Shown in pieces: positions 21,670 through 64,000 of a stretch of DNA of 64,000 nucleotides; the stretch's first letter is position 1; every line of letters starts with the position of its first letter. A model generated the notes under the pieces. That model had not been told where the DNA came from and did no database searches. It saw only the letters and a program-made list of their open reading frames with translations. Position numbers and translations under genes: made by a program. Origin of the DNA: Deltaproteobacteria bacterium (GTDB lineage: Bacteria > Myxococcota_A > Polyangia > JAAYKL01); NCBI GenBank assembly GCA_016936575.1, contig JAFGXQ010000013.1:2835-66834 (forward strand), in the 5' to 3' direction.

Positions 21670-23751
21670 ATGAGCTTTTTAAAACTTATCCTTATTTCTT
21701 TTTGCGCACTTTTCACCATGACCGCTTGCACCGACGAACCGACCGGGGCTCCATTTACAGCGTTCCCGAAACCGGTGCAGGCGCAGTATGCGAAATATTA
21801 CAACTCTCCCAATGACTTTTACGAATTGGACCGTTCGGGCACACTGGGCAATCAAGCCACCGGGGCGCTGTACTGCGAGCAACGCAGCGGGGGAGAAATC
21901 ATTTATACCGATTCGGGCAATGCGGTGCGGGGAACCTGCGGTCTGGCCTTTGTATCGCCACACTACGCCATCACCGCCGCACATTGCGTGGACGTAGACT
22001 CCTGCGGCTATCCGGGTGTTACATTCAAAGTTCGACAATTTGACATTCGCGAGTTGGATGAGTCTGTGCTGGACGACGTATTCACCCTGTCCAATGTGCT
22101 GAATCCCGAATTCGAGACCTGGCAGCCGAATCACTTTCTGACTGATTCAGATGGATACCACTACAATGAGTATGAATGCAGCGTGGAAATTTTGTGTGAC
22201 AGCGCCGGCAATTTCGGACGACGCAACGGTGACATTTGCCAGTTGAACGGCACGTCTTTCTATCGCGACATCGCGCTGGTGCATTGCCCGAATCGCGCAG
22301 ATGACGGCCCATACCTGGAAGTGGCGCCCAGCGTCAACCCCGGCGACAATGTTCTGGTGCACTGGTTTCACGAAATCGTCAATCTCCCGTTGCCTGAAAA
22401 CTGTACAGCGCCGGAATGCGCCAATGCCAACGCGTTTTACAGCTTGCGGTCATCGATGGCGAACAACTTTCACTACATGGGGTTTGATTCCACCCGGGAA
22501 ACGCAGCTGATGCCGCTCATCACGGTGGCTTGGGGACGAAACGACACCGAGACTGATACAGAAACATCCGTTCAAAGCTCCGTGCCGCCGGAGTTGGTCG
22601 AAAACACGCATGCATTGCTCTCGACCGATACCTTCTACGCCAACACCGACATCTGGGGATGCCACGGCATATCCGGTTCCGGCTTACTGGTAGTGGGAGA
22701 TGACGGTGTGGAACGATATGTGGGCCCTGCGCAGCTCGGCTCCTACACCTCGTCCTTGGACACCAATCTATGCGAAACTTCTGATGCGGTGCCGGGACAG
22801 GAAATGCTCCGTTTCGGGCAGTCTTACTATTCCGCAGTATTGGCAGCGTGGGCATTGACGAATGATCCCGCGCTGAATGTAGACACGGATACATCCGCGG
22901 ACAGTGATACTGCGCCAGATACAGACACATCGACAGATGCAGACACCGACAGCGACACCGATTCCGATTCCGATTCCGATTCCGATACCGATACCGATTC
23001 CGATACCGACAGCGACACCGATTCCGATTCCGATTCCGATACCGACACCGATTCCGATTCCGATTCCGACAGCGACACCGATTCCGATACCGATACCGAT
23101 TCCGATTCAGACAGTGACAGCGACACAGACACAGACTCCGATTCAGATTCAGATACCGACTCAGATACTGATTCAGATACCGATACCGATTCCGACGCGG
23201 ATACTGATTCAGATACTGATTCAGATACTGATTCAGATACCGATGCCGATTCCGACGCGGATACTGATTCAGATACCGATGCCGATTCCGACGCGGATAC
23301 TGATTCAGATACCGATGCCGATGCCGACGCGGACACTGATTCAGATGCCGACGCAGATTCCGACGCGGATACTGATTCAGACACTGATTCAGATACCGAC
23401 ACCGATGCCGACGCAGATACTGATTCAGACACCGACTCAGATACTGATTCAGATACCGATGCCGACACAGATTCCGACGCGGATACTGACGCAGACAGCG
23501 ACGATGGCCCGCCTTCGTCAGATTCGGACTCCGGCGGGTTGACCGATTCAGATTCGTCAACAAATACCGGTTCAGATTCGTTGCCGAATGCAGATTCAGA
23601 ACCATTGATGGATAGCGACACAGGTGAAACGCTTGCTGATGAAGAAGATGTTCACACCGAAGAGTCGTGCGGCTGTATGGTTCCGGGAATGCCTACTGCT
23701 CAGGATTCCGATTTACTGAATCTGATGATTCGGCTGTTTACCAATTCGTAG
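21670..23751 (+). CDS. S1 (trypsin-like) serine peptidase lipoprotein with long C-terminal acidic D-S/T/A repeat region
   Basis: ORF 21643..23751. Probable start [20 protein letters not shown] (lipobox). His motif YAITAAHCV, Asp in RDIALVHC, Ser region [11 protein letters not shown]. Then about 220 aa of DSDTD/DADTD repeats and a short C-terminal tail. Confidence 0.65.
22879..23563. repeat. low-complexity GAY-WCN hexanucleotide-type repeat encoding poly(Asp-Ser/Thr/Ala)
   Basis: Seen directly. Produces stop-free ORFs in several frames on both strands, which are artefacts. Confidence 0.8.
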
Positions 23752-39565: not shown

Positions 39566-40303
39566 TCAAAACGCGGTGGCGGTATACGTGGCGGAAAGGT
39601 TTCGCGGGTCGTAGCAGAACTGGGCACCCGTCTCGCCGATGCAGGCGTATTGGGTGGCTTCGCCGCTCAGCACCGGATCCGTCTCATCCGTGCGGCACTC
39701 GGAATTATCGGCACATCCCTTGGCACATACTTTTGATGAGAGATTCGCGTCTCCCACGATGGTAGCCGCGACCACATCCATCTCAATCAGCACCGTGCCT
39801 GCGGGGCAGCTCGTCATAGCATCGAAATCACCGTATTCAGCAGTGGCGCACACCAAATCGTTGCCGGTGCAGTTGGCCATCGCCTGAATGGCGCAATAGC
39901 CGTTTGCAAAAAACACATCATTGGCCATGGTACCGCTGTACGTGCGCAGGCAAACCACACTGCCTCCGAATTCTGTCGAAACATCGTCGCATCCGATAAT
40001 TCCTTCTCCTCCGTTGGGCAAAGGGACCGTCGCCGACTCACAGGTCGTACCCACGCAGGTACACGCCGAACCGATGGTCTGGTCCGCAGTGAATGCAGTA
40101 TCCACATCGGAGTCGGTTCCACTGTCGGTTCCCGAGTCAGAGCCGGTATCGGTGTCCGTATCGGTATCAGAATCGGTGTCTGTGTCGGTATCGGTATCGG
40201 CGTCGCCGTCGCTGTCCCCGGATTCATCATCGCCACAGGCGCCCAGTCCGAAAGACGCAACCAGCAGCGAAACCAATAACAATAAATAAAAATGAATTTT
40301 CAT
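39566..40303 (-). CDS. acidic-repeat lipoprotein with Cys-rich C-terminal domain
   Basis: ORF 39566..40354. Probable start MKIHFYLLLLVSLLVASFGLGAC (lipobox). DTDTD repeat stalk. C-terminal domain of about 180 aa with about 14 Cys, ending ...TYTATAF. Confidence 0.6.
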   Translation of the reverse strand: MKIHFYLLLLVSLLVASFGLGACGDDESGDSDGDADTDTDTDTDSDTDTDTDTGSDSGTDSGTDSDVDTAFTADQTIGSACTCVGTTCESATVPLPNGGEGIIGCDDVSTEFGGSVVCLRTYSGTMANDVFFANGYCAIQAMANCTGNDLVCATAEYGDFDAMTSCPAGTVLIEMDVVAATIVGDANLSSKVCAKGCADNSECRTDETDPVLSGEATQYACIGETGAQFCYDPRNLSATYTATAF

Positions 40304-40412
40304 AATCAACATCCTTTGTTTTGCATGAATTATGGTGATGCCATCATACAACAAATGAAAAATGAAAATAAAAAAAATGCACTCGGTAGGTGAGAGAAGA
40401 AATGACGTTCAG

Positions 40413-41393: not shown

Positions 41394-41402
41394 TCCGAAT
41401 GA

Positions 41403-41897
41403 CTACGACAATTTCGCCTGCACCCTGGCATCGGATGCAACCACGCCCTCCGCCATGGTGATCCGCTCCGCATCCAGCTTGGCCGCGAGGGCATCATCGG
41501 AAATACTGATGATGGACGCCGCAATCAGCCCGGCATTCTTAGCGCAATTCACGCCCACACCCGCCATGGGTACGCCGCCGGGCATCTGAACTGTCGACAA
41601 CAACGCATCAATTCCACCGAGACCGCCGACTTCAATGGGCAGCCCAATCACCGGCAACGTGGAGTTGGCCGCCATGGCGCCGCCCAAATGATTCGCCGCG
41701 CCCGCTGCTGCGATTATTACCGCGTGACCATCTGCCCGTGCGGATTTCGCCAGTTTCGCAGCCCGTTCCGGAGACCGATGCGCCGAAGCCACCGCCACCG
41801 TGAACGGCACGGCCAATTGCTTCAACACTTTTATCGCCGGCGCCACTTTATCAAAATCATTTTCACTGCCCATAACGATCAATACACTTTTAGACAT
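41403..41897 (-). CDS. purE: 5-(carboxyamino)imidazole ribonucleotide mutase
   Basis: ORF 41403..41909. Start MSKSVLIVMGSENDF. PurE signature AAGAANHLGG. Confidence 0.85.
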   Translation of the reverse strand: MSKSVLIVMGSENDFDKVAPAIKVLKQLAVPFTVAVASAHRSPERAAKLAKSARADGHAVIIAAAGAANHLGGAMAANSTLPVIGLPIEVGGLGGIDALLSTVQMPGGVPMAGVGVNCAKNAGLIAASIISISDDALAAKLDAERITMAEGVVASDARVQAKLS

Positions 41898-41934
41898 ATT
41901 TCTCCTCATCTATGTTTCGTATGCGATTTCGCCG

Positions 41935-43200: not shown

Positions 43201-43229
43201 GAAGCCCTCCTATCTGAACGTTATTTCGA

Positions 43230-43841
43230 TTATCGCGCTTTTTTTCCGGTTTCCACGTTGTATTCCGCCAGTCCCGTAAAAACAGCCGCATCGTATTTTG
43301 CGGTATGCGCATACGCTTTCACCGCCAACTCAAAACGAAATTTATCCGTCACCCTGTCGCTTTTGGCGAGATGCCATAAAATTGTTTCATAATCATCGGG
43401 CTCGCACACCACGGTCACCCGTCTGAAATTTCGTGCCGCGGACCGAAGCAGGGACGCACCGCCGATATCAATCATATCAACGGCGTCATCCAGGGTCAGG
43501 CTCGGATCCGCAGCCACATATTCGAACGGATACAGATTCACGACCACCAGATTAATGGGTTCCGCATGCATACGCTCCAGCTCAGCGAAATGCCCGTCAA
43601 TGTCTTCTGCAAGAATGCCGGCGTGAATTTTGGGGTGCAGCGTTTTCATACGCCCTTCCATAATTTCGGTTTCACCGATGTAATCAACCATCCGCGTCAC
43701 GGGTAATCCCGCGTTCGAAATGGCATCCGCGGTCCCGCCGGTCGACAAAATATGATACCCCAGATCAACCAGTCCGCGCGCCAGGGTTTCAATGCCTTTT
43801 TTATTTGCAACACTTAATAATGCAAAACGTCGTTTGTTCAT
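43230..43841 (-). CDS. stand-alone IMP cyclohydrolase (MGS-like N-terminal domain of PurH) without AICAR transformylase domain
   Basis: ORF 43230..43868. Start MNKRRFALLSVANKKG. Matches PurH N-domain (ILSTGGTA..., RMKTLHPKIHAGIL, NLVVVNLYPF). Ends after about 203 aa, 29 bp before purD, so there is no room for the transformylase domain. Confidence 0.7.
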   Translation of the reverse strand: MNKRRFALLSVANKKGIETLARGLVDLGYHILSTGGTADAISNAGLPVTRMVDYIGETEIMEGRMKTLHPKIHAGILAEDIDGHFAELERMHAEPINLVVVNLYPFEYVAADPSLTLDDAVDMIDIGGASLLRSAARNFRRVTVVCEPDDYETILWHLAKSDRVTDKFRFELAVKAYAHTAKYDAAVFTGLAEYNVETGKKAR

Positions 43842-44011
43842 ACATCTCCCCGATTGTCGTCGTCGCACGTCCCCACGTGCAAAAAATGTTCACCCGTTTT
43901 ACGGCATTCACTCCCTTTTGAAAAGAGCTTTAGTCCGAACCGCCTTCTGTCACTTTTCCGCCCTACAAAAACGCTTGAGATGAATCGGTAATCGGGATAG
44001 ACCCAACGACA

Positions 44012-45589
44012 ATGAGTAACGCACCGAAAGTCAACCGAATCTGGGACACGCTGTTTTGCGGCAACCGACGATACACCGCAGCGCTGCTGGTCTCCGTAGC
44101 GGTTCATATTTCGGTGTATATGTACTATTCGCCGACATACGAAGAGGTGAAGGACATCGCCATGGAATTTGACCTGGTAACCAGCGAGATGGACCAGCCC
44201 CTGGCTCCCGATGCAGAAGGCCCGCGCGACTTAAAAAAGACCCCGGAAGAGGACCAACCCGATGAAAATGCCGAATCCGCCGATGAAACGCCGCTCCCGG
44301 ATAACAACGGAAAGTTGATTGGCGACACCGATTTAGTTAAAGACACAGAGGCGCCCGCCACCGACTCGGACACCGGTGCCGGAGCGGACACTGATTCGGA
44401 TTCAGAAAAAACCGACACCGATAGCCTGACCGATACCGATACCAAATCTGACTCCGATGCCAACAGGGATTCAGACACCGCAATCGCGTCAGCCGATTCA
44501 GACTCGAAATCGGATTCCGGCCCGGTACATATCGTCGCAAATGATACGGACAGTGATTCCCGCACAGATTCCGACAGCGCATCAGTGTTTACCTCCGCCG
44601 ACTCGGACAGCGGGGGGAACAAATTTCCGGACTCTATCGGCGCGGCAGGGGGACCCGAAAACGGTGTATGCCTGCACGACGTATTCTCCTACGGAATTCA
44701 AAACCCCAAATGGATGACGTGGCTCAGCATGACCGCATTCGCCGGTACGCGCTACGAACAAGGACTGGCGGGTATTTTAAACTCTTTTTATCTATACAAT
44801 GAAATGGTATCCGCCACCGAAATCGATCCGCTCACAGAACTGGAAGGCGTGCTCATCAGTGCCGACAACTTCGCAGATTTCAGCACGTACCAAATCGTCA
44901 CAACCTACAATATCGGGCAGGAGGTGCTCAAAAACCGGCTGGTAAAAAATGTCGGCGATAAGCCCGGCTTTGCCGTGTCGCCAACCAACCAGGGGGTCTC
45001 GGGGGTGCTCCCCGGCAGCTACCGCTGGGACATGGTCGGTTCGGGCCGCGTGATGGTGGCCAGCGACGCCCAAAAGGGAATATTCAACCCCGAGTGGCCC
45101 AAGGGAGTAACCTGCATGATGCCCATGCCGCCGTTTGAAGGAAACGCGCAAAAACAGTTTCGCTCTCTGGTGCGTTCAAAATTGGGACCGGCCAAAGCCG
45201 GCGACCGATGGCCGGTGATGCTGATGGCGACGCGGGATCCGAACGCCGTTGGTTTGTACAACAATCCACAATTGGCCGCCATGTTTCAATACGCGGTGCT
45301 AAAGGGATATTTCTCTGAGCCGATTCAGGTTCAGGGCGAAGCGAAATTCAACGGAAGCCCCCAGGATATGGTTCGAGTGGAATACATGGTAAAATACCTG
45401 ATCCAGAAGGCAGATTACCTGAAGTATCTCGGACTTGGGGGAATCGCCGATAAGATTGAGTACCGAATTGAAGGCGACACATTATATTTTACGATTCCGC
45501 TTACAGAAAAGCAGGTTGCCGTCGCCCTGCTGGTGCTGAAGCAATACAGCAAAATGCTGAACGAGCATTTCAGTCAACCACCCAAATAA
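44012..45589 (+). CDS. membrane-anchored hypothetical protein with acidic D/S/T-rich linker
   Basis: 525 aa. N-terminal TM helix (AALLVSVAVHISVYMYY). About 100 aa acidic linker with DSD/DTD repeats. About 330 aa C-terminal domain of unknown function. Confidence 0.5.
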   Translation: MSNAPKVNRIWDTLFCGNRRYTAALLVSVAVHISVYMYYSPTYEEVKDIAMEFDLVTSEMDQPLAPDAEGPRDLKKTPEEDQPDENAESADETPLPDNNGKLIGDTDLVKDTEAPATDSDTGAGADTDSDSEKTDTDSLTDTDTKSDSDANRDSDTAIASADSDSKSDSGPVHIVANDTDSDSRTDSDSASVFTSADSDSGGNKFPDSIGAAGGPENGVCLHDVFSYGIQNPKWMTWLSMTAFAGTRYEQGLAGILNSFYLYNEMVSATEIDPLTELEGVLISADNFADFSTYQIVTTYNIGQEVLKNRLVKNVGDKPGFAVSPTNQGVSGVLPGSYRWDMVGSGRVMVASDAQKGIFNPEWPKGVTCMMPMPPFEGNAQKQFRSLVRSKLGPAKAGDRWPVMLMATRDPNAVGLYNNPQLAAMFQYAVLKGYFSEPIQVQGEAKFNGSPQDMVRVEYMVKYLIQKADYLKYLGLGGIADKIEYRIEGDTLYFTIPLTEKQVAVALLVLKQYSKMLNEHFSQPPK

Positions 45590-45707
45590 AAAGCGCTTCC
45601 CCTGCAGCGGAACAAAGTAATTTTATTTTTTGTTGTATTATCTATAAATTTCGTTAAAAACGGTGTGGCCGCAAGGCGGCAGACCTGTTCGTTGAAAACA
45701 AAATTTT

Positions 45708-45791
45708 GCCAGGGTGGCGGAATTGGTAGACGCAAGGGACTTAAAATCCCTCGAGCTATTGCTTGTACGGGTTCGATTCCCGTCCCTGGTA
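45708..45791 (+). tRNA. tRNA-Leu (anticodon UAA)
   Basis: Cloverleaf by eye. Acceptor GCCAGGG/CCCTGGT plus discriminator A. Anticodon stem AGGGA/TCCCT with loop CTTAAAA (TAA). Long variable arm. T-arm ACGGG-TTCGATT-CCCGT. CCA not encoded. Confidence 0.85.
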
Positions 45792-45939
45792 CTATTCTTC
45801 ATCTATCGCAATAACTTGACTTCATGGAAATAGAGGTATAAACGGATAAATAATTCTATCTGGCTCGAAAAATTTTAATCGCACTGATAGAATTAAAAAC
45901 GACAGCACGAACTGCTATTTTTCATATTCGGAGTGAGCC

Positions 45940-52787: not shown

Positions 52788-53810
52788 ATGAAAAAACTAC
52801 TCATCCTTCTTTTAAGCCTCCTGGCCCTGGTTGCATTCAGCTGCAGCGACTCAGGATCATCGGGAGAAAGCGATGGAGATGCGGATTCCGACTCAGATGC
52901 GGATTCGGATTCCGACACAGACTCAGATTCGGATTCGGATACGGATTCTGACTCAGACACCGACTCGGATACGGACACCGACGCGGACACCGACGCGGAC
53001 ACTGACACTGACACCGACGCAGACACTGATGCCGATACCGACGCCGACACCGACACCGACACTGACGCGGATACGGATTCCGACACAGATTCAGATACCG
53101 ACACCGATGCCGATTGTGCCTATAACTGCGCCGGAAGCGAACAGGCGTGTGAAAATGGGTGGGGTGTCGAAGCCGGTAGCGTAGTGGATGGCGACTGCGT
53201 GGTTGTCGGCGGCCCCAATGACGGCGAAGACGGTTTCTGCTGCATGCCTGCCGGTGCAGACGGCGATACCGATAGCGACACAGACTCGGATACCGATGCC
53301 GATACCGATACCGACGCCGATACCGATGCCGATACCGACGCCGACACAGACTCAGATGCCGACTGTGCATATGATTGTGCCGGTAGTGAGATGGCGTGTG
53401 AAAATGGATGGGGTGTCGAAGCGGGTAGCGTAGTGGATGGCGACTGCGTCGTTGTCGGCGGTCCAAATGACGGTGAGGACGGTTTCTGTTGTATGCCGGC
53501 CGGTGCAGACGGCGACACCGATAGCGACACCGATTCGGACACCGACTCAGACACAGACGCCGACACTGACGCCGACACTGACGCCGACACTGACGCGGAT
53601 ACCGACGCCGACACCGATTCAGATGCGGATTGTACATCCTGTCACGACCTTCCTCCAGGTGGCCGTCCTCACGACAATACACATAATGAATTCTCGTGTA
53701 ATGATCCCGACTGCCACGGCGGTGTGGTGAGCGCTGACGGCTCCACAATCGTCGATGACAGCCTCCATATGGACGGCTCAAGCAACGCGGCATGTAACAA
53801 CTGCCACTAA
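52788..53810 (+). CDS. acidic-repeat lipoprotein with two duplicated Cys-rich modules and C-terminal paired-CxxCH (putative c-type heme-binding) module
   Basis: 340 aa. MKKLLILLLSLLALVAFSCSDSG lipobox. Three DSD/DTD/DAD repeat tracts. Two near-identical about 60 aa six-Cys modules. C-terminus CTSCHDLPPGG...CNDPDCHGG...CNNCH. Confidence 0.65.
   Translation: MKKLLILLLSLLALVAFSCSDSGSSGESDGDADSDSDADSDSDTDSDSDSDTDSDSDTDSDTDTDADTDADTDTDTDADTDADTDADTDTDTDADTDSDTDSDTDTDADCAYNCAGSEQACENGWGVEAGSVVDGDCVVVGGPNDGEDGFCCMPAGADGDTDSDTDSDTDADTDTDADTDADTDADTDSDADCAYDCAGSEMACENGWGVEAGSVVDGDCVVVGGPNDGEDGFCCMPAGADGDTDSDTDSDTDSDTDADTDADTDADTDADTDADTDSDADCTSCHDLPPGGRPHDNTHNEFSCNDPDCHGGVVSADGSTIVDDSLHMDGSSNAACNNCH
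53110..53610. repeat. tandem intragenic duplication (two about 250-bp units, about 85-90% identical)
   Basis: Seen directly. Each unit encodes DCAY(N/D)CAGSE(Q/M)ACENGWGVEAGSVVDGDCVVVGGPNDGEDGFCCMPAGADGDTDSD plus an acidic repeat. Confidence 0.6.
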
Positions 53811-53990
53811 ATCCCCCCTACTTCGTTACTCTCTGCACCCCCTGAAAATTTTGTTCTAACTGAGCGCCGTTCGGAATAAATCCAGTCACGAATAGTTACT
53901 CCCTCTTTTTTTTTTCACAAAAACGCGATTTGTCTCCCATTACACATAGAAGAACTCGAAGTTTTTTTTCACACACACAAGGAGAAGATT

Positions 53991-54499
53991 TTGAAAAAAC
54001 TACTCATCCTTCTTTTCAGCCTGCTGACCCTGGTTGCGCTGAGTTGCAGTGATTCAGGAACAACAGGCGGTGGCGATGGAGACACAGACGGTGATGCCGA
54101 CTCAGACAGTGACGGTGACGGAGACGCAGACAGCGATACCGATTCTGACACTGATAGTGATACCGACTCTGATACCGACTCTGATACCGACAGCGACACA
54201 GACGCTGATACCGATTCGGATTCAGACCCAGTCTCATGTGATACATGCCACGGAAATCCACCCGGCGGCAGCCCCCCCCCCACAACCGGTCTGTCCATCT
54301 GAGCTTCGGCTGCAACAACCAGAACAACCACGGAGATATGATCGACGCGGCGGGAACCGTGATTCTGGACGATACTCTCCACCAGAACGGAACCGTCGGC
54401 ACCACCTGCGGCTCAGGCGGGACCGGCTGCCACCGATTTCAATTTCGTTTACCCCGCGCCGTTTTTCCATTCGCATTTCTGACAATCACGTATATTTGA
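53991..54499 (+). pseudogene. paralog of the 52788 lipoprotein interrupted by a frameshift at a C10 homopolymer tract (54272..54281)
   Basis: Frame A (53991..54302) encodes lipobox, DSD stalk and CDTCHGNPPGG, then terminates. Frame B (54245..54499) continues with PPPHNRSVHLSFGCNN...DDTLHQNG...GTGCH, homologous to the paralog tail (RPHDNTHNEFSCND...DDSLHMDG...CNNCH). Adding 1 C (C11) or removing 2 (C8) would restore a single frame. Confidence 0.5.
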
Positions 54500-54573
54500 G
54501 CTGCTTTGGTCGCATAAATGCACCATTATACTTTGTTCTGCGGGGCTTTTTGCAAACGAAACATCACCCGCAA

Positions 54574-56397
54574 ATGGAAAACAACATGAATAATTTAATA
54601 AAAATCAATATTGTCGTCGGTTTTGTCTTTTTCACAACTAGTTGCATTATGCCGCCCCGGGGCGTGGAAACGCCTCCGATCAAGCCGCTTCCGGACATTG
54701 CGGAACACACAGTGCGTGTGAATCAGGTGGGCTATTTTCCGAATCGCAAAAAAATCGCCGCCTACCGGAGCGACTCTCAGACACCGCTTTCGTGGCAACT
54801 GTTCGACAACAAACAGAAAAAAATCGCTGAAGGCAAAACAACCCCTATCGGGCTCGATGACGACTCCGGGGAGCATGTCCATCTTATCGACTTTTCAACA
54901 ACACAGGTGGAAGGCACCGGTTTCACATTGCGCGTCGGAAATGAAAAATCCGTACCGTTTGCCATTTCATCAAAACTCTATGAGGGTCTTCGACGGGATG
55001 CCGTGCGCTATTTTTATATGAACCGCAGCGGTATTCCGCTTGAGATGCCGTACGTGGAAGATCCATCGGCAGAGCGGGACGCCGGCCACCTCAGCGACAA
55101 AAGTGTGCGGTGTGAAACCGGACAAAAATGCGACTACCGCAAAGATGTTTCCGGAGGGTGGTACGACGCCGGGGATTACGGGAAATACGTGGTGAACGGT
55201 GGTATCAGTGTTTGGATGCTGATGCATATTTACGAGTTTCTGTATGTGAACCGAACCCCGCATACCCAGCCGAAAAACCTGAATATTCCGGAAAGCACCA
55301 ATGATGTACCCGATATTCTGGATGAAGCGCGCTACGAGATGGAATGGATGCTGAAGATGCAGGTGACCGACAAGGAACAGGAATTCTACGGCATGGTACA
55401 TCACCGTGTTCGAAATTCTGAATACACCGCCATGGGGAAGGCGCCCCCGGAGGTAAACGTGGATCCGCCTCGTTATCTTCGAGACGTGGCAACCAGCGCG
55501 ACCCTCAATCTTGCGGCCACCGGTGCGCTTTGCGCCAGAGTCTTCAAACCGTTCGATGATGCATTTGCACAGAAATGCCTGGACGCCGCCGAACTGGCAT
55601 GGACCGCTGCCAGAATGCACCCATCCGAGCGTGCGGTAGGCGTCGGCTTCGTTCCGTACCAGAATCCCGATGTATCGGACGATTATTTCTGGGCCTCAGC
55701 GGAGCTGTGGGTCGCCACCGGAAAAACCGCCTACTACAACTTCATTCTTCAATCTCCCTACTATGAAAAATTCACCCATCGTGCCGGCGGCAGTACCTCG
55801 GCATTCAACTGGGCGGACACCGATGGTCTGGGCGCTGTTGCGCTGGCCACCTGCAGTAGGCCGGAAAAACCGGAGTTGGTCGAAAAGAAACAGCAGCAGC
55901 TCATTGCATTTGCAGATAGCCTGCTCGCGCTGATGGAAAAACAGGGGTATCGATTTCCGCTGGACAAGCGAACATATCCGTGGGGGTCGAATTCCTTCAT
56001 CGTAAACAACGCGGTGGTGCTCGCGGTGGCATACCGATTAACCAGCGAAGATAAATACCTGGACGGCGCCATCGTCGCGGTCGACTACATTCTTGGCCGC
56101 AATCCCCTCGACTTTTCGTATGTCAGCGGTTACGGCACCCTGGCGATGCAGTTTCCGCATCATCGATTTTTCGCACCGTCTTACAACAACAAACTGCCGT
56201 TCATTCCACCGGGAACCCTGGCGGGCGGCCCCAATACCAATCTGCAGGACAGCACCTCCCGCAGCTTTCGCGCAGGGTGTCCGCCGGCAAAATGTTATGT
56301 GGATCATATCGAAGCATACGCCACCAACGAAGTTGCCATCAACTGGAATGCCGCGTTGGCCTGGATAGCCATCTACCTCGACGAAACCGCCCGTTGA
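54574..56397 (+). CDS. glycoside hydrolase family 9 endoglucanase with N-terminal Ig-like (CelD_N) domain, lipoprotein
   Basis: Start MENNMNNLIKINIVVGFVFFTTSC (lipobox). GH9 signature GGWYDAGDYGKY. Catalytic region NEVAINWNA at the C-terminus. The 5' part of ORF 54049..56397 is read-through of upstream repeat DNA. Confidence 0.85.
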   Translation: MENNMNNLIKINIVVGFVFFTTSCIMPPRGVETPPIKPLPDIAEHTVRVNQVGYFPNRKKIAAYRSDSQTPLSWQLFDNKQKKIAEGKTTPIGLDDDSGEHVHLIDFSTTQVEGTGFTLRVGNEKSVPFAISSKLYEGLRRDAVRYFYMNRSGIPLEMPYVEDPSAERDAGHLSDKSVRCETGQKCDYRKDVSGGWYDAGDYGKYVVNGGISVWMLMHIYEFLYVNRTPHTQPKNLNIPESTNDVPDILDEARYEMEWMLKMQVTDKEQEFYGMVHHRVRNSEYTAMGKAPPEVNVDPPRYLRDVATSATLNLAATGALCARVFKPFDDAFAQKCLDAAELAWTAARMHPSERAVGVGFVPYQNPDVSDDYFWASAELWVATGKTAYYNFILQSPYYEKFTHRAGGSTSAFNWADTDGLGAVALATCSRPEKPELVEKKQQQLIAFADSLLALMEKQGYRFPLDKRTYPWGSNSFIVNNAVVLAVAYRLTSEDKYLDGAIVAVDYILGRNPLDFSYVSGYGTLAMQFPHHRFFAPSYNNKLPFIPPGTLAGGPNTNLQDSTSRSFRAGCPPAKCYVDHIEAYATNEVAINWNAALAWIAIYLDETAR

Positions 56398-56430
56398 CGA
56401 TTTCAGCTGTACTGCCCTGATATTATTTCA

Positions 56431-56451
56431 AATCCGAAATGTATTCGGATT
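56431..56451. terminator. hairpin AATCCGAA-ATGTA-TTCGGATT downstream of the GH9 gene
   Basis: Seen directly. 8-bp perfect stem, no U-tract. Confidence 0.25.
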
Positions 56452-56520
56452 CATCGATCTGTTCGTTGCTCAATTTCAATTATAACGTACATTATAAAGA
56501 AACAAATCGGGTTTTATTGC

Positions 56521-57207
56521 ATGGGGGGCAATATGACACAGATTTCGGATATATGTGACCGGTATACGCACGCGGTTTTCAACACAGACCAGGATACGGC
56601 GCAAGATACCATTTACCAGGCGCTGAATGAAGGACTACTGGCCGAAGAACTGGTCTTCAATGTTATTTTGCCGTCTCTGGAAAACATGCTCGAAACGTTG
56701 GTTCAGAACGACAACGCAACGTTGTCGCAACATTTTATCGCCGCCAAGGTATCGAGCGCAATGGTCGAAATGTTGCTTCCCAAATTTTCTGGGACCGCCC
56801 ACGCAAACGGAGTTGTGGTTATCGGCACCGCTCGGGGTGACTTTCACGGGCTTGGTAAAAAAATCGTTTCGGGCTGTCTGACCGCCAACCTGTTTACCGT
56901 TTATGACGTGGGGCTCAACGTGCAACCGGAGCGGTTCGTACAGGAGGCGCTGCAAAAAAACGCCTCTGTCATCGCGGTTTCGTCAATGATGATGCACACC
57001 GCAATCGGCGATGACGGGCCAAAAAGAATAAAAAAACTACTGCAGGACCGGCAGCTGACCGACCGTATCAAACTGATCGTCGGAGGCGCACCGTATCGAT
57101 TCGACGACAAGCTGTACCGCGATGTGAATGCCGATGCCACGGCATTGGATGCACTTTCTTCGGTGGCGGTATTCAAGCACCTGGTTCAGGAGGTGCGTCA
57201 TGCCTGA
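56521..57207 (+). CDS. cobalamin (B12)-binding corrinoid protein (MtaC/MtbC-like: B12-binding_2 helical cap plus Rossmann B12-binding domain)
   Basis: 228 aa. DxHxxG motif in GDFHGLGKK followed by S..LS-type and GG motifs (SSMMMHT, VGGAP). Start may be the internal MTQIS. Confidence 0.75.
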   Translation: MGGNMTQISDICDRYTHAVFNTDQDTAQDTIYQALNEGLLAEELVFNVILPSLENMLETLVQNDNATLSQHFIAAKVSSAMVEMLLPKFSGTAHANGVVVIGTARGDFHGLGKKIVSGCLTANLFTVYDVGLNVQPERFVQEALQKNASVIAVSSMMMHTAIGDDGPKRIKKLLQDRQLTDRIKLIVGGAPYRFDDKLYRDVNADATALDALSSVAVFKHLVQEVRHA

Positions 57208-58237
57208 TTCGATGAGCCTCTTTGGAAAATTGATGAACGGAGAGCTTCCCAGCCGGGTTCCGGTGGCGCTGAATCTCTTCGACCAGGGCCAGAAAGAACT
57301 ACGCCTCACCAGCGAACAGTACTATAGCCGTGCGGAAAATGTGGTCTCCGGACAGCTTGAACTGCGAAAAAAATACGGCCATGATGTGGTGTGGGGAACC
57401 CACTATGTCGCCCGCCAGGCGGAGATTCTCGGTTCCCGCCGTACCATTTTTCCAACCAACGGCCCCCCGAACGTGGGCGATATGGTGATAAAAACACACA
57501 AGGACATCGAGACACTGCAAATTCCGGACGATGTGACAGAACATCCGTCATTCACCATTCAACTCGACACCATTCGCATGCTCAAGCGTGAACTGAACGG
57601 CAGCGCACCGGTATGCGCATTTCAAACCGGCACATTCACTCTCCCTTCCATTCTAATGGGCATTCATGCGTGGATGGACTTATTTTTAACCGGCCCCCCA
57701 TCGCTGGTAGACGAGCTACTGACAAAATGCTCGGAATATACCATAAAAACTTTTTCGGCGCTTAAAGAAGCCGGCGCGACGCTGGTAGCCTACGCGAATC
57801 CGATGGTGTCCACCGACTTTTTCTCTCTGCCGCAAATTACAGAACGCTGTCTGCCGTGGGTTAAGCGGGATATGACGCGCATGGGCACAGACGGTCTGGT
57901 TTATTTTTGCGGTGGTTCTCGCATCAACGGCGTGCTTCCCGAAATACTGAAACGCACCACCATCGGTGCATTCCTCGTGCACCCGCAAGACGATGTGGCA
58001 CACGCCAAAGCATTGGTCGGCGGCAAGGCACTGGTCGCCGGAGCGATCAATGATATTCAGCTCATCCGATGTACACCGGAAGAAGCACGTCAGAGCACAA
58101 AAGAGATAATCGAAAAAGGCGCGCCTGGCGGAGGGTTTATTTTAAGCTCCCTCGTGATGCCGTTTCAAATTCCAACTCAGAATATACATGCGGTGGTCGA
58201 TGCGGCACATCAATACGGCGCCTACGAAGCGACCTGA
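57200..58237 (+). CDS. uroporphyrinogen decarboxylase (URO-D) family protein, MtaA/CmuA-like corrinoid methyltransferase
   Basis: ORF 57128..58237. Probable start MPDSMS overlapping the corrinoid protein gene end by 8 nt. TIM-barrel URO-D-like sequence, lacking the uroporphyrinogen-specific context. Confidence 0.75.
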   Translation: MPDSMSLFGKLMNGELPSRVPVALNLFDQGQKELRLTSEQYYSRAENVVSGQLELRKKYGHDVVWGTHYVARQAEILGSRRTIFPTNGPPNVGDMVIKTHKDIETLQIPDDVTEHPSFTIQLDTIRMLKRELNGSAPVCAFQTGTFTLPSILMGIHAWMDLFLTGPPSLVDELLTKCSEYTIKTFSALKEAGATLVAYANPMVSTDFFSLPQITERCLPWVKRDMTRMGTDGLVYFCGGSRINGVLPEILKRTTIGAFLVHPQDDVAHAKALVGGKALVAGAINDIQLIRCTPEEARQSTKEIIEKGAPGGGFILSSLVMPFQIPTQNIHAVVDAAHQYGAYEAT

Positions 58238-58241
58238 TGCG

Positions 58242-58850
58242 ATGAACCACTCTCGCGCCACTCGAATGATCAGCTGCAGCATTCTGAAAAAGGAGGTGCT
58301 GCATGTTCTGAAACGCCGTGAAGGTGCAGTCGATATTACATTCCTGCCGTCGTCTCTTCACAACGACCTCGACAAACTTTCCGCGCGACTAAACGACGCA
58401 ATGGGACGCTTCAACGCGCCCACAGTGGTACTCTACGGCACTTGTCATCCTCAGATGGACAAATTCATCTCTCACCACAACGCCCAAAGGATTCCCTGTC
58501 AAAACTGTATTGAACTCCTGCTGGGAGCTGAACAGTATACCCAATACCTCGCTGACGGCGCGTTTTTCCTGTTGGAGGAATGGGCGCATTCATGGGAAAA
58601 AAACATCGCCGCTGCACTGGGAGCGAATATCGCTGCAAGAAACGCTCTTCTCCGCGATTCGCATCAATACCTGTTATGCGTGAACACACCCTGCTCCCGA
58701 GATTTTTCAGTTCAGGCGAAAAACATCGCGAAACAAACTGATCTGCCGATTCGGTCCCTTGATGTAGAACTCAATTATCTGGAGAACGTCTTTGACCAAA
58801 TACTGATGGTCGGTGACCGTTCTTCCAAAGGAGTAATGCGTAATGAATGA
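58242..58850 (+). CDS. DUF1638-like protein
   Basis: ORF 58188..58850. Probable start MNHSRATRMIS. Cys-containing motifs (GTCHPQ, CQNC). This family is recurrently encoded next to corrinoid protein/MtaA-like pairs (established knowledge, from memory). Confidence 0.5.
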   Translation: MNHSRATRMISCSILKKEVLHVLKRREGAVDITFLPSSLHNDLDKLSARLNDAMGRFNAPTVVLYGTCHPQMDKFISHHNAQRIPCQNCIELLLGAEQYTQYLADGAFFLLEEWAHSWEKNIAAALGANIAARNALLRDSHQYLLCVNTPCSRDFSVQAKNIAKQTDLPIRSLDVELNYLENVFDQILMVGDRSSKGVMRNE

Positions 58851-60603
58851 ATGTACCAATTGCAGCAAGCTCCAAAAAGAGATTGAGTATCAGAAGCAGC
58901 GAATTGACAGGATCGCCAAAGAAAAATCTCATCTGCAACTGGTTGCCGACATTCTTTCCGATCTGGCGAAACTGCACGGAGTAAAAGCCATTGCCAATCA
59001 CACCCTCGCCTTTCTGATGAATTCCATCGGCGGCACCAATTTATCCTTCTACTACACAACCGATAAGTCGTGGCAGATGATTGACGTATACGGCAATGAA
59101 AAAGAAATGACATATCCGGAAGACCCTGACGTCTTGAGAGCAATCGACGAAAAAAAATTTCACGGAATACAAACCCAGGGCGAAGAAAAAGGCTATTTCA
59201 CATTCAACGTGGGAAAAAGCCGATTTGAAAAGTGGGTGTTTCCGCTTTGTGTCGAAGAAGAGGTATTCGGTGCATTCGTCGTGGATGGACTGCTCATTCA
59301 TCTTCATGACGCCATTATCGAACAGCTGCATATCATCAGTACGTATATCAGTCTGGTTGTCAAAAACGAATTTCTGACAGAGTCGCGACTGAAAAAGGCC
59401 AACGATGCACTGATACAAAAAAACATTGCGCTGATGAATGAAATTGACCAGCGCACAAGACTGGAGCGGGAGCGAGAAAAGCTGTATCAGGAACTACAGC
59501 AGGCCCAGAAAATGGAAGCGATTGGTACGCTGGCCGGCGGCATCGCGCACGACTTCAACAATCTGCTCGGCGCTATCATCGGATACACCGACCTGGCGAT
59601 TGACAACTGCACCGACGATGAATCTCACTTCAATCTCGATCAGGTGATGCAGGCAGCGGAACGGGCAAGAGACCTGGTGAAGCAGATTCTAACTTTCAGC
59701 CGCAAACAGGACACCAAGAACGCACCGATATACATCGCACCGGTGGTGAAAGAAGTAATGAAATTATTGCGCGCGACCATTCCCACCACCATCATCATAC
59801 AGGTAAGTATCGACAAGCAGTGCGGCGCAATATTGGGAAATGTGACTCAGCTTCACCAGATTATAATGAATCTATGCACCAATGCGACGCATGCGATGGA
59901 GGAAAATGGCGGAACCCTGCGTGTATCCCTCCGCCCCATTGAACCGCAAAACAAAAAAGGTGAAAAATCACTTCAGCTACAGATAAGCGATACCGGCTGC
60001 GGGATTCCCCAAGATGTTCTGCCTCGAATTTTTGAACCGTATTTTACCACCAAAGGAATCGGTAAAGGAACTGGAATGGGTCTCGCTGTGGTTCATGGAA
60101 TCGTATTGTCGATGAACGGAACCATCACTGTCTCATCTGAACTCGGAAAAGGAACCACCATCGAATGCACCTTCCCCATCGTCGATGGGGACGTCCGCGA
60201 CAGCGAACCACCCGTGGAACAGCACCCGACCTTCACCGGTGTTGCCATGATCGTGGATGACGAATCTTCCATTGCAGATCTTGCACAACAAATGCTGACC
60301 AAAATGGGATTCACCTGTGAAACATTTCAAAACGGGATGAATGCCCTGGACGCGTTCCGCGCTGATCCGAAAAAATACACTCTGGTACTGACGGACCAGA
60401 CCATGCCCGGCATCACCGGTATGCAGTTGTCTGAAAAACTGTTTTCCATAAAAAACGTACCGGTTCTGATTTCATCGGGATACAGCACCTCTATCGACGA
60501 AGAAAAAGTCGCCGCACAACCGAACATGGAATTTCTGGCCAAGCCGTATACCTACAAGAAACTAGAAAAGGTAATCTCCGACCTGCTGAGCGACTCTCCC
60601 TGA
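58843..60603 (+). CDS. cytoplasmic hybrid sensor histidine kinase (GAF-like N-domain, HisKA, HATPase_c, C-terminal receiver)
   Basis: 586 aa. Start overlaps the previous gene by 8 nt. H-box [12 protein letters not shown]. HATPase DTGCGIP / GTGMGLAV. Receiver VAMIVDDE...[13 protein letters not shown]. No TM segments. Confidence 0.8.
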
Positions 60604-60727
60604 ATCAGGAGCCGCTATTCAATTCATTTTTCGGCGAACACGAACACGCTCGCAAAAAAAATGAACCGTTTACCCACCCAAAGAACTCAATTGATGCAGT
60701 GCAACCGAAACGGCAAGGAGACGGCAA

Positions 60728-62077
60728 ATGGAACGAAACGATTTTCTAATACCCCGATTTTTTACTATCATAACATTATTATTATCGATGATAACAGTCA
60801 TCGCCTGCTCTGTTGAGGAGGGGCAGATAGATAAGGCTTCCGATGCGGACTCAGACACGGATACTGACTCTAACTCTGACTCTGATACAGATACAGACTC
60901 TGATTCTGATAGTGATGCAGATGCGGATACAGACACCGACGCAGACAGCGACACCGACTCTGACGCAGACAGCGACACCGACTCTGACTCTGACAGCGAC
61001 ACCGACTCTGACTCTGACAGCGACACCGACTCTGACTCTGACTCTGACTCTGATACAGATACAGACTCTGATTCTGATAGTGATGCGGATGCGGATACAG
61101 ACACCGACGCAGACGCAGACACCGACGCAGACACCGATACAGATACCGACGCTGACACCGATACAGATACCGATGCAGATACCGACGCTGACACCGATAC
61201 GGATACCGACGCTGACACCGACTCGGACGCCGATGCAGACACCGACACGGACTCTGATAGTGATGCGGATGCGGATACAGACTCAGATACGGACTCGGAC
61301 ACTGACTCTGATACTACGATCAATTGCGAGACCATCGCCCATCCGGGCAGCGTCGGTCCGCTGGACGTAAATAGTTACAGCGCAGGGTTACGTGACGGAC
61401 CGGACTACGGTTCGCAGACCATGCATGCACCGGTCGGAGATGGGGAATTCCCTGCTATCGCAATTGTACCCGGTTACATGTCGTACGAATCATCCATTTC
61501 GAGCTGGGGACCCTATTTCGCATCCCACGGCATTGCAACGCTGACTATCGGCACTAACAGCATCATGGATCAACCGCCCGCCCGCTCCGCTGCGCTGCTT
61601 GACGCTATCGACACCATTCGTGCAGAAAATGAGCGCCCGGACAGCCCGTTGTATCAACAAATTGATCTCACAAGGCTCGGCGTCATGGGGTGGTCAATGG
61701 GCGGAGGCGGTACGCTCATTACCGTCAACAGTCACCCCGAGCTCAAAGCTGCCATTACCCTATGTGCGTGGAACCCGGGTCAAACCTATCCAAACAATTC
61801 TGTCCCTACATTATTATTCGCCGGGACGGCCGATACCCTCGCGGGAGGGCAGTCTCAGGGGTTCTACACCAGCATTCCCGATACCACCCCAAAGATGCTT
61901 TTCGAAGTGGCCGGCGCCGACCATTTCTTTGCCAATTCTCCAACCGGCGCAAACAATCAGACCGGCTTGTACGGCACAGCCTGGTTAAAAGTGTTTCTTG
62001 CCGGAGATGAATGCTATCGTCCATTTCTGCTGGCCCCCCCCGGCGGCACATCGGATTTCAGAACGAACGTGGAATAA
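60728..62077 (+). CDS. acidic-repeat lipoprotein with C-terminal cutinase/PETase-like polyesterase domain (alpha/beta hydrolase)
   Basis: 449 aa. Lipobox ITVIAC. About 165 aa DSD/DTD/DAD stalk. Catalytic domain with GWSMGGGG nucleophile motif, Asp in GTADTLA and His in GADHFFAN, plus AWNPGQT. These closely resemble the Thermobifida cutinase / Ideonella PETase family as recalled. Confidence 0.75.
60836..61328. repeat. GAY-WCN repeat encoding poly(Asp-Ser/Thr/Ala) stalk
   Basis: Seen directly. Generates artefactual ORFs 60670..61335(-) and 60843..61370(+). Confidence 0.8.
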
Positions 62078-62188
62078 CACATATCAAAATCAAAAAGGTG
62101 ACTACCACCTTCACTTTTTTGAACCGTCCAGCCGTACTTCGGGCTCAATCCTATTGTATAAAGCCACCAACCCGCAAGGAGATGCACC

Positions 62189-63619
62189 ATGAAAACATGC
62201 CAGCACCAGGGAATGACCGTATTATTTCATTTACTATGTATTATGACGTTCACAGCCGTTTTGTCCGGTTGCTCTGTAGACAGCGGTGAAGTCGAGTCCG
62301 AGACCGACGCAGACGCGGATTCAGATGGGGATACAGATTCTGACGCGGATACAGATTCTGACGCAGATGCGGATTCCGATGCGGACGCAGACTCAGATGC
62401 AGACGCAGACGCCGACTCAGACGCGGATTCTGACGCGGATTCAGACGCGGACTCAGATACGGATTCAGATGCCGACTCAGACGCGGATTCAGATACGGAT
62501 TCAGATGCCGACTCAGACGCGGACTCAGATACGGATTCAGATGCCGACTCAGACGCGGACTCAGATACGGATTCAGATGCCGACTCAGACGCAGACTCAG
62601 ACGCGGATTCTGATGCGGACTCGGACGCAGACTCTGACACAGACTCAGATACGGACTCGGATGCAGACTCGGACGCAGACTCAGATACGGATTCTGATGC
62701 GGACTCGGACTCAGACACAGATTCTGACACTGACGCGGATACGGACACGGATTCTGATAGCGATGCGGACTCGGACTCAGATGCAGACACAGATTCTGAC
62801 ACCGATGCGGACAGTGATTCTGATACCGATGCGGACTCGGATTCTGATAGCGATTTTACCGCCGATCCCATCATTCCCGAGATCACCGGCGATTGTCCAG
62901 ATTTTGAAACCGGTACCATCACATACATGGGATTAAGCGGTATTTCCCTACAGGTGGGAGACTTGGGGTCTGGCGACGGCGCCATTCTCTTTTATTGGCA
63001 CGGTACCGGTTCCAGTTCCGCTGAGGTCACCTTTATGGTACCGAGCAGTGTGCGAAACGATATTTTGAATCAGGGCGGAATCATCGTCGCTTTTGACGGC
63101 TCGCTGGGAACCGGCGGCGACTGTTCCGGCACCGCCACGTTCAGCAAAGACGACTTCAACATCGCCGACCAGATTGTTGCCTGTGCGATTCGCGACCACA
63201 ACATCAATCCTCGTCGTGTGTATACCACCGGCTGCAGCGCTGGAGGACTTCAATCCGGATGCATGGGCGCCCTCCGTTCCAACTATGTTGCAGCGACAGT
63301 ACCCAACTCGGGAGGGCTGGTATTTCCTCAATCCATACAGAATGATGCACACACACCCGCGGTAATGACGATGCACGGCGGTTCTTCCGACTGGGTGGGA
63401 GTATCTTTCGCAAGCACCAGCGCCACATATGATGCAATGATGGACAATGCCGGCAGTTTTGTTGTGAATTGTGATCATGGGGGCGGACACTGTCAGGCCC
63501 CATCCGAACTGTATGAAGCGGGCTGGCAATTCATGAAGGCACATCCCTTCGGAGTCGATCCATTCCCGTGGGAAACCGGTCTCGTAGGTTTTCCGGATTA
63601 TTGCGCCATATACGAATAG
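62189..63619 (+). CDS. acidic-repeat lipoprotein with C-terminal alpha/beta-hydrolase esterase domain (LpqC/PHB-depolymerase-like)
   Basis: 476 aa. Lipobox LSGC. About 190 aa DSDAD repeat stalk. Esterase domain with FYWHGTGSS, nucleophile GCSAGG (GxSxG) and MHGGSSD. Subfamily assignment is tentative. Confidence 0.65.
62287..62865. repeat. GAY-GCN/WCN repeat encoding poly(Asp-Ser/Ala/Thr) stalk
   Basis: Seen directly. Generates artefactual ORFs 62227..62985(-) and 62286..62936(+). Confidence 0.8.
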
Positions 63620-63621
63620 GA

Positions 63622-64000
63622 CTATCTCTGACAGGCGCAGACTCGCTCCGCAACCGAATACGCAGCTTCCGGGTTCACATCGGGATGAATCAGCCACCAC
63701 AACCCGTCGTTCCAGATATGGCAACCCAACCCCTCGCTGGACAGACTCAACCGCGACGCCGCGCCGACTTCACCGTCAAAACCCATTCGTCTGAAGATAT
63801 TTCGACATTCCTCCCAGTCTCCCCCCTCGGACGGCGTGCCGGTTACAAAAGAAGTCGCGTCGCTGTATCCGCCATGTACTTCACACACCTCTATACAATT
63901 GTCACCCGCTTCCCCAAGATACCAGCAATGGTCGGCGTACCCCACGCCGCCGTCATCACAGACAATATTGCCGTAGTCGCTGTCCGTTCCGATTTCTGTA
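63622..64000 (-). CDS. hypothetical Cys-rich protein (5' end probably beyond the window)
   Basis: ORF 63622..63945 shown from first Met. The reading frame likely continues past position 64000. Several Cys. No recognisable domain. Confidence 0.3.
   Translation of the reverse strand, partial: TEIGTDSDYGNIVCDDGGVGYADHCWYLGEAGDNCIEVCEVHGGYSDATSFVTGTPSEGGDWEECRNIFRRMGFDGEVGAASRLSLSSEGLGCHIWNDGLWWLIHPDVNPEAAYSVAERVCACQR

Follow-up and report, generated by a model that had tools for sequence, protein, structure and literature searches.

What role do long tracts of alternating aspartate play in a set of predicted lipoproteins from a single bacterial genome? The question is raised by a stretch of 64,000 nucleotides from Deltaproteobacteria bacterium (assembly GCA_016936575.1, contig JAFGXQ010000013.1, positions 2,835 to 66,834), here referred to as the window. 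Seven of its genes, A to G, encode proteins with tracts in which Asp alternates with Ser, Thr, or Ala (D-[STA]), here called stalks. These stalks are an undescribed, environmentally widespread acidic version of the disordered lipoprotein linker, and not a new protein family. The reading favoured here, held with moderate confidence and on the strength of sequence, is that they form an intrinsically disordered, polyanionic tether joining a membrane anchor to a secreted folded module.

Stalks were detected by listing the open reading frames (ORFs) and scanning their translations with a regular expression, with trinucleotide shuffling of the window as the control. Eight runs of at least 12 aa, with strict alternation of Asp with Ser, Thr, Ala, Gly, Glu, or Asn, were found in six ORFs; there were no such runs in 100 shuffles. 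The (D-[STA])n runs of the window reach 188 aa, compared with a maximum of 6 aa in the shuffled sequences. The seventh ORF (gene C, 44012) has an impure D-rich patch instead of a clean run. The preliminary description, made from the letters of the window, had placed long alternating tracts in at least seven genes, and an ORF with a tract is indeed present at each of the seven starts. The genes and their stalks are as follows.

Gene A, 21670..23751, + strand: lipobox ..FTMTAC followed by TDEP, trypsin-like serine protease domain, C-terminal D-[STA] stalk, and short SCGC tail.
Stalk of gene A, 22876..23538, + strand: aa 403-623, 221 aa, 47% Asp, 22% Ser, 19% Thr, 9% Ala, net charge -104.
Gene B, 39566..40303, - strand: lipobox ..FGLGAC followed by GDDES, D/T/G/S stalk of ~50 aa, and 177-aa Cys-rich domain.
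Stalk of gene B, 40082..40234, - strand: aa 24-74, about 50 aa, 36% Asp, net charge -21.
Gene C, 44012..45589, + strand: N-terminal transmembrane or signal-anchor helix, impure D-rich region (44342-44506), and 325-aa domain; a marginal member.
Gene D, 52788..53810, + strand: lipobox ..LVAFSC followed by SDSG, three stalks, two Cys-rich modules, and C-terminal heme-motif module.
Stalks of gene D, 52845-53126, 53244-53375, and 53493-53642, + strand: 96, 44, and 50 aa, 42-44% Asp, net charge -43, -19, and -21.
Gene E, 53991..54302, + strand: tandem paralogue of gene D, a frameshifted fragment of 103 aa.
Stalk of gene E, 54048-54236, + strand: 65 aa, 42% Asp, net charge -27.
Gene F, 60728..62077, + strand: lipobox ..ITVIAC followed by SVEEG, stalk, and PETase/cutinase-like hydrolase.
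Stalk of gene F, 60809-61333, + strand: 169 aa, 47% Asp, 20% Thr, 18% Ser, 11% Ala, net charge -79.
Gene G, 62189..63619, + strand: lipobox ..AVLSGC followed by SVDSG, stalk, and alpha/beta-hydrolase esterase with GCSAG.
Stalk of gene G, 62273-62869, + strand: 199 aa, 47% Asp, 23% Ser, 17% Ala, 9% Thr, net charge -97.

The PROSITE lipobox pattern PS51257 was matched by genes A, B, D, E, F, and G (6/7) and by a neighbouring GH9 cellulase. It was previously proposed that all seven proteins combine a lipobox with a stalk that carries a C-terminal cargo. This holds for five (39566 on the complementary strand, 52788, 53991, 60728, and 62189), in which the tract lies directly behind the lipobox Cys. 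The stalk encoded at 21670 (gene A) is instead C-terminal to the protease domain, just ahead of the SCGC tail. The product at 44012 (gene C) has no match to the lipobox pattern, and its D-rich region is short (34 + 20 aa) as well as impure. Asp makes up from 36% (B) to 47% (A, F, and G) of the stalks, the net charge reaches -79 to -104 in the latter three, and hydrophobic residues are absent. In the AlphaFold2 (AF2) model of gene G, the predicted local distance difference test score (pLDDT) is 37-56 in the stalk, which has no secondary structure, and 80-96 in the cargo. The tract lies between a membrane-anchoring signal and a folded module of extracellular type, as would be expected of the extended tether suggested in the preliminary description. 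Disorder of the stalks, surface exposure, and the tethering function are inferred.

The cargo assignments made beforehand were largely upheld: PETase/cutinase-like for 60728 (gene F), esterase for 62189 (gene G), trypsin-like fold for 21670 (gene A), and a CxxCH module for 52788 (gene D). By sequence, the cargo of gene F belongs to the polyethylene terephthalate (PET) hydrolase-like/cutinase family (PF12740, 200.4 bits against a cut-off of 28, E=4.5e-59); PDB entry 7pzj matches at 1e-54 and many PETases at ~1e-48, and the GWSMG nucleophile motif is at aa 321. The cargo of gene G matches polyhydroxybutyrate-depolymerase-type and LC-Est1 esterases weakly by sequence, and by Foldseek it matches LC-Est1C (E=2e-8) and also feruloyl esterases. 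Some of its homologues, from Sorangium, bear CBM2. The protease domain of gene A is modelled by AF2 with a pLDDT of 84 and retrieves trypsin-like proteases by Foldseek (probability 1.0, E~1e-6, TM(target) ~0.6). Its H79/D174/S309 triad is invariant across 43 homologues; the match to the Pfam Trypsin model PF00089 is below threshold (17.4 bits against a cut-off of 20.6, E=0.004). Searches of Pfam, NCBIfam, and PDB sequences gave no match for the Cys-rich cargo of gene B or for the 325-aa domain of gene C.

Are the stalks real? Their DNA is made of degenerate repeats, for which Tandem Repeats Finder reports periods of 6, 12, 24, and 36 nt with 70-80% matches (6/12/36 nt and 71-79% in stalk A), and exact self-repeats extend to at most 11-68 nt. 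All are in frame between signal peptide and folded domain. Independent assemblies in Logan, made from runs SRR13394436 and SRR13394437, match the window at 100% identity over 11470-22974 and 31935-45737, and gene B is identical in one Logan contig (L001). The assembly covering 11470-22974 ends 39 nt inside stalk A. Exact-protein look-ups in public assemblies found flanking genes alone, with genes D and F, the GH9 cellulase, and a histidine kinase unmatched, probably due to start-codon choice or contig breaks.

Are the stalks related to one another? The longest DNA word common to any two of them is at most 24 nt, and the preference among Ser, Thr, and Ala codons differs from stalk to stalk. Together with the degenerate short periods, this indicates that the stalks arose by separate local expansions. 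A mobile stalk cassette common to the genes was considered and was ruled out by the comparison of stalk DNA. The genes had been described as a family, a term that does not apply: the stalks are without DNA homology, the cargos are of unrelated folds, and orthologues of one cargo have linkers of other composition. They are a convergent linker type, not a gene family.

Is the pattern selected? For the stalks of A, D, E, F, and G, residues were assigned to slots set by the flanking Asp residues. In the D-slots, Asp occupies 355 of 362 positions (98%), with the codons GAT and GAC in a ratio of 179:176. The 367 X-slots hold Ser (141), Thr (128), Ala (90), and Gly (8). Not one of them holds Pro, even though its codons (CCN) lie a single mutation away from TCN, ACN, and GCN. 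Asp is held while synonymous sites are scrambled, and Pro is absent, which argues that the alternating acidic tract is under purifying selection. There is perhaps also selection against perfect DNA repeats.

Comparison with orthologues separates the presence of a linker from its sequence. The esterase alignment of gene G was scanned against a genome collection, giving 80 Myxococcota loci, with a lipobox recognizable in about 45. These ~45 orthologues (35-75% identity) have the lipobox followed by 28-162 aa of low-complexity linker up to the catalytic domain. Most genomes of 61-71% GC have G/S/A- or P/T-rich linkers, and two genomes in this range have D/G-rich linkers. Orthologues from Sorangium and Polyangiaceae are among those with a G/S/A- or P/T-rich linker. 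The long linker is therefore conserved, and the linker sequence is not. An orthologue in a Myxococcales metagenome-assembled genome (MAG) of 42.5% GC (L004) is 75% identical and has a 152-aa stalk (D42/T26/S17). The same contig has, at 10736-12532, a further D-[STA] tract ahead of an alpha-galactosidase-like domain, about 4 kb away from the esterase orthologue; here the longest Met-initiated ORF starts past the tract. The closest homologue of gene G has DTHADTAP repeats, and its contig begins inside them. The linkers of the high-GC relatives are neutral and often contain 20-34% Pro, compared with the Pro-free acidic stalks of the window, which points to another physical solution to the same spacer problem.

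The stalks are not confined to the window. When 1.84 billion cluster representatives were searched exhaustively by phmmer, the query being the signal peptide plus stalk of gene G, there were about 4,200 matches at E<=1e-3 and 465 at E<=1e-10. Lipoproteins whose cargo is a glycanase, lectin, or esterase make up most of the best matches. Among the best 150 of the ~4,200, there are 83 N-terminal stalks (75 with a lipobox-like signal), 13 C-terminal stalks, and 19 internal stalks. Among the cargos of 38 strict lipobox-stalk proteins are GH11, GH16, pectate lyase, CBM6, C-type lectin, Lcl_C, and beta-helix domains. Of 20 proteins looked up, 4 carry a source name, and 4/4 are from Deltaproteobacteria bacterium MAGs. 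One of the matches (P0268), encoded on a long-read contig of 9.4 Mb and 70% GC, is a PETase-like protein with a lipobox and a 100-aa D/A/T/S stalk, which shows that such tracts are real and are not simply an effect of low GC. Low genomic GC as the sole driver of the D/S/T composition is refuted by this stalk and by D/G linkers at 66-69% GC. Literature on repeat strings and on acidic lipoprotein linkers in Myxococcota yielded no description of this architecture. As to whether it is an already-named family, none in Pfam or NCBIfam covers it; it is, however, common in metagenomes, making the window less unusual.

How do the stalks compare with known systems? The likeness to Ser-Asp repeat stalks drawn earlier is sound, in that composition and position are alike to the staphylococcal SD repeats. 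In staphylococci, the SD repeat is a stalk that projects a ligand-binding domain through the envelope. As in the SD region, or R region, of ClfA/ClfB and SdrC/D/E, Asp dipeptides alternate, the DNA repeats are short and degenerate, and the repeat separates the functional domain from the anchoring signal, which is clearest in gene A. Unlike in the Clf/Sdr proteins, there is no LPXTG, A domain, or B repeat, X is Ser, Thr, or Ala and not Ser alone, anchoring is in most cases by a lipid at the N-terminus, in a diderm, and the cargos are hydrolases rather than adhesins. No C-terminal LPXTG is present among the stalk proteins of the window. The NCBIfam SdrC, SdrD, and ClfA models align to the stalk repeat alone, at 20-155 bits against cut-offs of 999-2500, so that these are not Clf/Sdr proteins.

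A second parallel is offered by the disordered linkers of the Escherichia coli outer-membrane lipoproteins RcsF, Pal, and NlpD, in which length matters and sequence does not (10.1101/2021.01.05.425367). Like them, the stalks are presumed disordered and follow directly behind the lipidated Cys and the sorting residues, and the linker is kept while its composition is swapped in orthologues. The E. coli linkers are about 20-50 residues of ordinary composition, whereas the stalks are 50-220 residues, 42-48% Asp, and periodic, with a selected pattern. The G/S/A- or P/T-rich linkers of Myxococcota lipoproteins and carbohydrate-active enzymes are like the stalks in position, length range, and cargos, but the stalks are polyanionic and exclude Pro.

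How might such a tether work? The anchor would usually be the acylated N-terminal Cys of a lipoprotein and, in gene A, probably a C-terminal Cys-x-Cys tag; in gene D, the additional tracts may double as inter-domain linkers. Charge repulsion could keep the tether extended and off the anionic envelope. Most likely, the tethers keep hydrolases, and a small protein with heme motifs, at a distance of tens of nanometres from the membrane while these stay associated with the cell or with vesicles. The stalks would be the local form of a long low-complexity linker that is general to Myxococcota lipoproteins, each having originated gene by gene through expansion of units of 6-36 nt. The cargo classes fit extracellular work: PETase/cutinase-like, esterase, and protease in the window and, in other stalk proteins, GH11, GH16, pectate lyase, CBM6, and lectins. 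Because of these classes, and because lipoproteins are exported in Myxococcus xanthus (at least 11 to the extracellular matrix; PMC3222651), Bacteroidota, and Acinetobacter, exposure on the surface or on vesicles is the expected location. As the alternating acidic pattern is selected within the lineage, composition appears to matter to the envelope of the organism, not to the individual cargo.

A selected polyanionic tether on lipoprotein enzymes suggests that degradative enzymes are kept attached, at a distance, to cells or vesicles, and such tethering would bear on carbon sharing in anoxic sediments. Uncultured anaerobic Myxococcota have been reported as polysaccharide degraders rather than predators (10.1101/2021.07.06.451402). 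The stalk could also serve in engineering as a ready-made, highly soluble display linker. Since stalks trigger spurious SdrC/ClfA-like matches and break short-read assemblies, recognition of such linkers avoids mis-naming and truncated gene models. Beyond what is known of linkers, the chief interest is in the selected D-x pattern and in the Cys-x-Cys tail of gene A, which falls outside the known models searched (TIGR03901).

Gene A tail, 23665..23748, + strand: 28-aa C-terminal tail directly behind stalk A, ending LFTNS; a candidate anchor or sorting tag.

A protein 56% identical to gene A (P0121) has the same layout, with the C-terminus SCGCQAIGRQRRKIASIFELL. The motif S-C-[GS]-C-x-x-[VIP]-G plus a short hydrophobic stretch is found behind D-stalks in gene A, in this relative, and in four unrelated metagenomic proteins with C-terminal D-stalks (P0168, P0184, P0193, and P0302). 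The tail resembles MYXO-CTERM (TIGR03901) in having Cys-x-Cys at the extreme C-terminus behind a low-complexity linker in Myxococcota, and differs from it in being without the long hydrophobic helix and the Arg cluster. Neither the gene A tail nor the five similar tails matched TIGR03901 at E<=10; a control tail (L013) scored 36.9 bits against a cut-off of 20. Membership of MYXO-CTERM for the gene A tail was ruled out by this positive-control test. Among the matches inspected, C-terminal stalks precede a CGC/CSC tail, a canonical MYXO-CTERM-like tail, or LPXTG, the last in Gram-positive matches with an SD-type stalk (P0174 and P0263). For all three types of anchor, the stalk directly adjoins the anchor. 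Judged from these sequences, the Cys-x-Cys tail may be an unrecognized C-terminal sorting signal.

Several points weigh against the tether reading. The lipobox calls are matches to the PS51257 pattern, rather than the output of a dedicated predictor. The +7 Ala rule for matrix export in M. xanthus (PMC3222651) is followed by 0/6 of the lipoproteins. The GH9 lipoprotein of the neighbourhood is without a stalk, so a stalk is not needed by every polymer-degrading enzyme. Finally, a generic spacer would not need so strict a D-x alternation or a bar on Pro, and both hint at an additional specific role such as cation binding, modification, or recognition in export. This strictness is the main observation that a plain spacer does not explain.

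Of the other explanations, a role of the acidic tract mainly as a sorting or export determinant, past the inner membrane to the surface or to outer-membrane vesicles (OMVs), survives best. By analogy with other phyla it is a real but lesser possibility, and it is compatible with a tether. In Bacteroidota, the lipoprotein export signal (LES) places SDDDD, SDDFE, or K-(D/E)2 beside the Cys (PMC5080379), and lipoproteins of the Acinetobacter baumannii type II secretion system (T2SS) have GGG or ND(N/D) at P2'-P4' (PMC12802150). Acidic or polar residues right behind the +1 Cys are a shared trait, and the carriers of these motifs reach the surface or OMVs, many being glycan-degrading enzymes. The mature N-termini CSDSGSS, CSDSGTT, CSVDSGE, CSVEEGQ, and CGDDESG all have a polar +2 residue and then acidic ones, and the non-stalk lipoproteins of the window start otherwise (CKECRL, CAGAGP, CGNSAS, and CIMPPR). 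The GGG and ND(N/D) motifs also parallel the split of the Myxococcota orthologues into G/S-rich and D-rich linkers, and in the 75 metagenomic stalk lipoproteins the +2 residue is mostly Ser, Gly, Ala, or Thr and rarely Asp or Lys. Because of the likeness of these acidic mature starts to export motifs, a contribution to sorting is a live rival. The LES pattern, a polar residue or Lys and then 2-4 Asp/Glu within +2 to +6, comes from another phylum, with function shown in Bacteroidota only; the fit to it is loose for B (CGDDES) and F (CSVEEG) and partial for D and E (CSDSG) and G (CSVDSGE).

Against sorting as the main role, a few residues are enough for a signal, and the stalks have 50-220. The LES and Acinetobacter signals take up 4-7 residues and occur in other phyla, each with export machinery of its own; the export systems compared are all defined outside Myxococcota. 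In addition, a stalk that is C-terminal (gene A) or between domains (gene D) cannot be an N-terminal signal, and several metagenomic examples have 10-40 non-acidic residues between the Cys and the stalk.

A second, more speculative alternative, to which a fairly low probability is given, is a lineage-specific display module of anaerobic Polyangia and their deltaproteobacterial relatives, in which the acidic pattern is read specifically and two anchors are used, the N-terminal lipid and the new S-C-[GS]-C-x-x-[VIP]-G tag. Such reading could be by an enzyme that modifies the tract, by a route of export to the surface or to vesicles, or through cations that bridge it to the envelope or matrix. 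Such a D-[S/T/A] display module could, by analogy, be the diderm counterpart of the staphylococcal SD-repeat stalk.

It is rather doubtful that the tract is primarily a polyanion that binds divalent cations, minerals, or polymers (Ca2+, Mg2+, other metals, or cation-bridged surfaces). With ~47% Asp in a strict D-x register, the stalks are dense carboxylate arrays and their pattern is selected; the Asp/Ser-rich proteins phosphophoryn and aspein bind Ca2+, and related MAGs are from a sulfidic, mineral-depositing spring. However, no Ca-binding Asp-rich repeat (thrombospondin type 3 PF02412, EF-hand, or RTX) is present among the Pfam and NCBIfam matches at E<=0.01, the orthologues use uncharged G/S/A or P/T linkers for the same job, and D-stalks are also present in MAGs of other sources, at 42-70% GC.

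Slightly less probable again is a scaffold for Ser/Thr modification, by O-glycosylation or phosphorylation, which is suggested by analogy. The closest compositional analogue, the staphylococcal SD repeat, is modified with GlcNAc by SdgA/SdgB against proteolysis, and in the stalks 73% of X-slots are Ser or Thr, with Pro and bulky residues excluded. About a quarter of X-slots are Ala, though, which is unmodifiable (stalk G is 17% Ala), and there is no glycosyltransferase adjoining the genes examined.

Finally, that the tracts are misassembled simple repeats, slippage products, or neutral junk is very improbable: the Logan break in stalk A and the start of the closest MAG contig inside a stalk leave the exact stalk lengths uncertain, and gene E has a homopolymer frameshift, but the repeats are degenerate (70-80% matches, exact repeats no longer than 68 nt), the frame is kept throughout, the Logan sequence is identical, Asp is 98% conserved over scrambled synonymous sites with Pro absent, the architecture recurs in independent MAGs and on the 9.4-Mb long-read contig, and orthologues retain the linker across 35-83% identity, so that the assembly artefact considered in the preliminary description is unlikely.

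The host was taken to be Gram-negative in style, and this agrees with its placement as a diderm whose closest relatives are Polyangia of the Myxococcota. A protein encoded in MAG JAFGQN01, from Zodletone spring, shares 83% identity with the esterase cargo of gene G, and the glutamate dehydrogenase of the window is 69% identical to that of the same MAG. This MAG belongs to the novel order JAFGXQ01 in the class Polyangia, anaerobic Myxococcota with ~50% GC that are rich in GH9 and other plant-polymer hydrolases (10.1101/2021.07.06.451402). On the - strand at 3893-5788, the window also encodes a 631-aa secreted protein that combines a fibro-slime/PA14 domain with Cys-rich acidic repeats of the myxo type (TIGR02232/DUF4215), five or six in number. 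As a taxonomic pointer to Myxococcota-like lineages, this protein fits the placement.

Genes D and E have further features, as follows.

Cys-rich modules of gene D, 53112-53255 and 53361-53504, + strand: two copies of a 48-aa six-Cys module.
C-terminal CxxCH/CxxxxCH/CxxCH module of gene D, 53628-53807, + strand: CTSCH...CNDPDCH...CNNCH, motifs read by eye.
C10 homopolymer in gene E, 54272-54281, + strand: one added C restores the frame to a stop near 54509.

The two six-Cys copies in gene D are identical at 46/48 residues (DCAY[ND]CAGSE.ACENGWGVEAGSVVDGDCVVVGGPNDGEDGFCCMPAG), and there is no Pfam or NCBIfam match for the module. The heme-motif module scores 14.7 bits (E=0.02) with TIGR01904, the Geobacter-type CxxxxCH/CxxCH c-type cytochrome domain, which is below the cut-off of 27. 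A word-indexed homologue search with the Cys-rich and heme-motif modules of gene D retrieved nothing. Gene E is like gene D in its ribosome-binding site and signal peptide, with the start codon TTG in E and ATG in D. With the added C, gene E would encode a ~172-aa protein with a C-terminus parallel to that of gene D, carrying a degenerate copy of the heme-motif module in which the second and third motifs are degenerate (CNNQNNH and C-x6-CH). Gene E may be a paralogue in decay, or its C10 run may be a site of phase variation or a sequencing error.

Within the neighbourhood at 52.8-63.6 kb, two further features lie among the stalk genes.

GH9 cellulase with CelD_N Ig-like domain, 54574..56397, + strand: lipobox ..FFTTSC followed by IMPP, no stalk.
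Three consecutive genes amid the stalk genes, 56521-58850: B12-binding domain protein, URO-D-family (MtaA/CmuA-like) methyltransferase, and DUF1638 protein.

The cellulase matches PF00759 (329 bits, 8.6e-98) and PF02927 (79.8 bits, 2.6e-22). By sequence, the three genes at 56521-58850 look like a corrinoid-dependent methyl-transfer set, in keeping with an anaerobic lifestyle. A hybrid histidine kinase is a further gene between the stalk genes. Four stalk genes are located in this neighbourhood, rather than the five counted previously. Its description as a surface polymer-degradation island is loose; the four stalk genes and one GH9 gene are there, but four cytoplasmic or regulatory genes interrupt them.

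Directly downstream of gene G on the opposite strand, at 63622-63945 (-), is an ORF for a Cys-rich 107-aa protein, for which there is no Pfam match. Elsewhere in the window, the gene for an 825-aa VIT-VWA protein precedes that for a 614-aa signal-peptide protein without a family match (14024-18342), and a tRNA-Leu (TAA) is located at 45708-45792.

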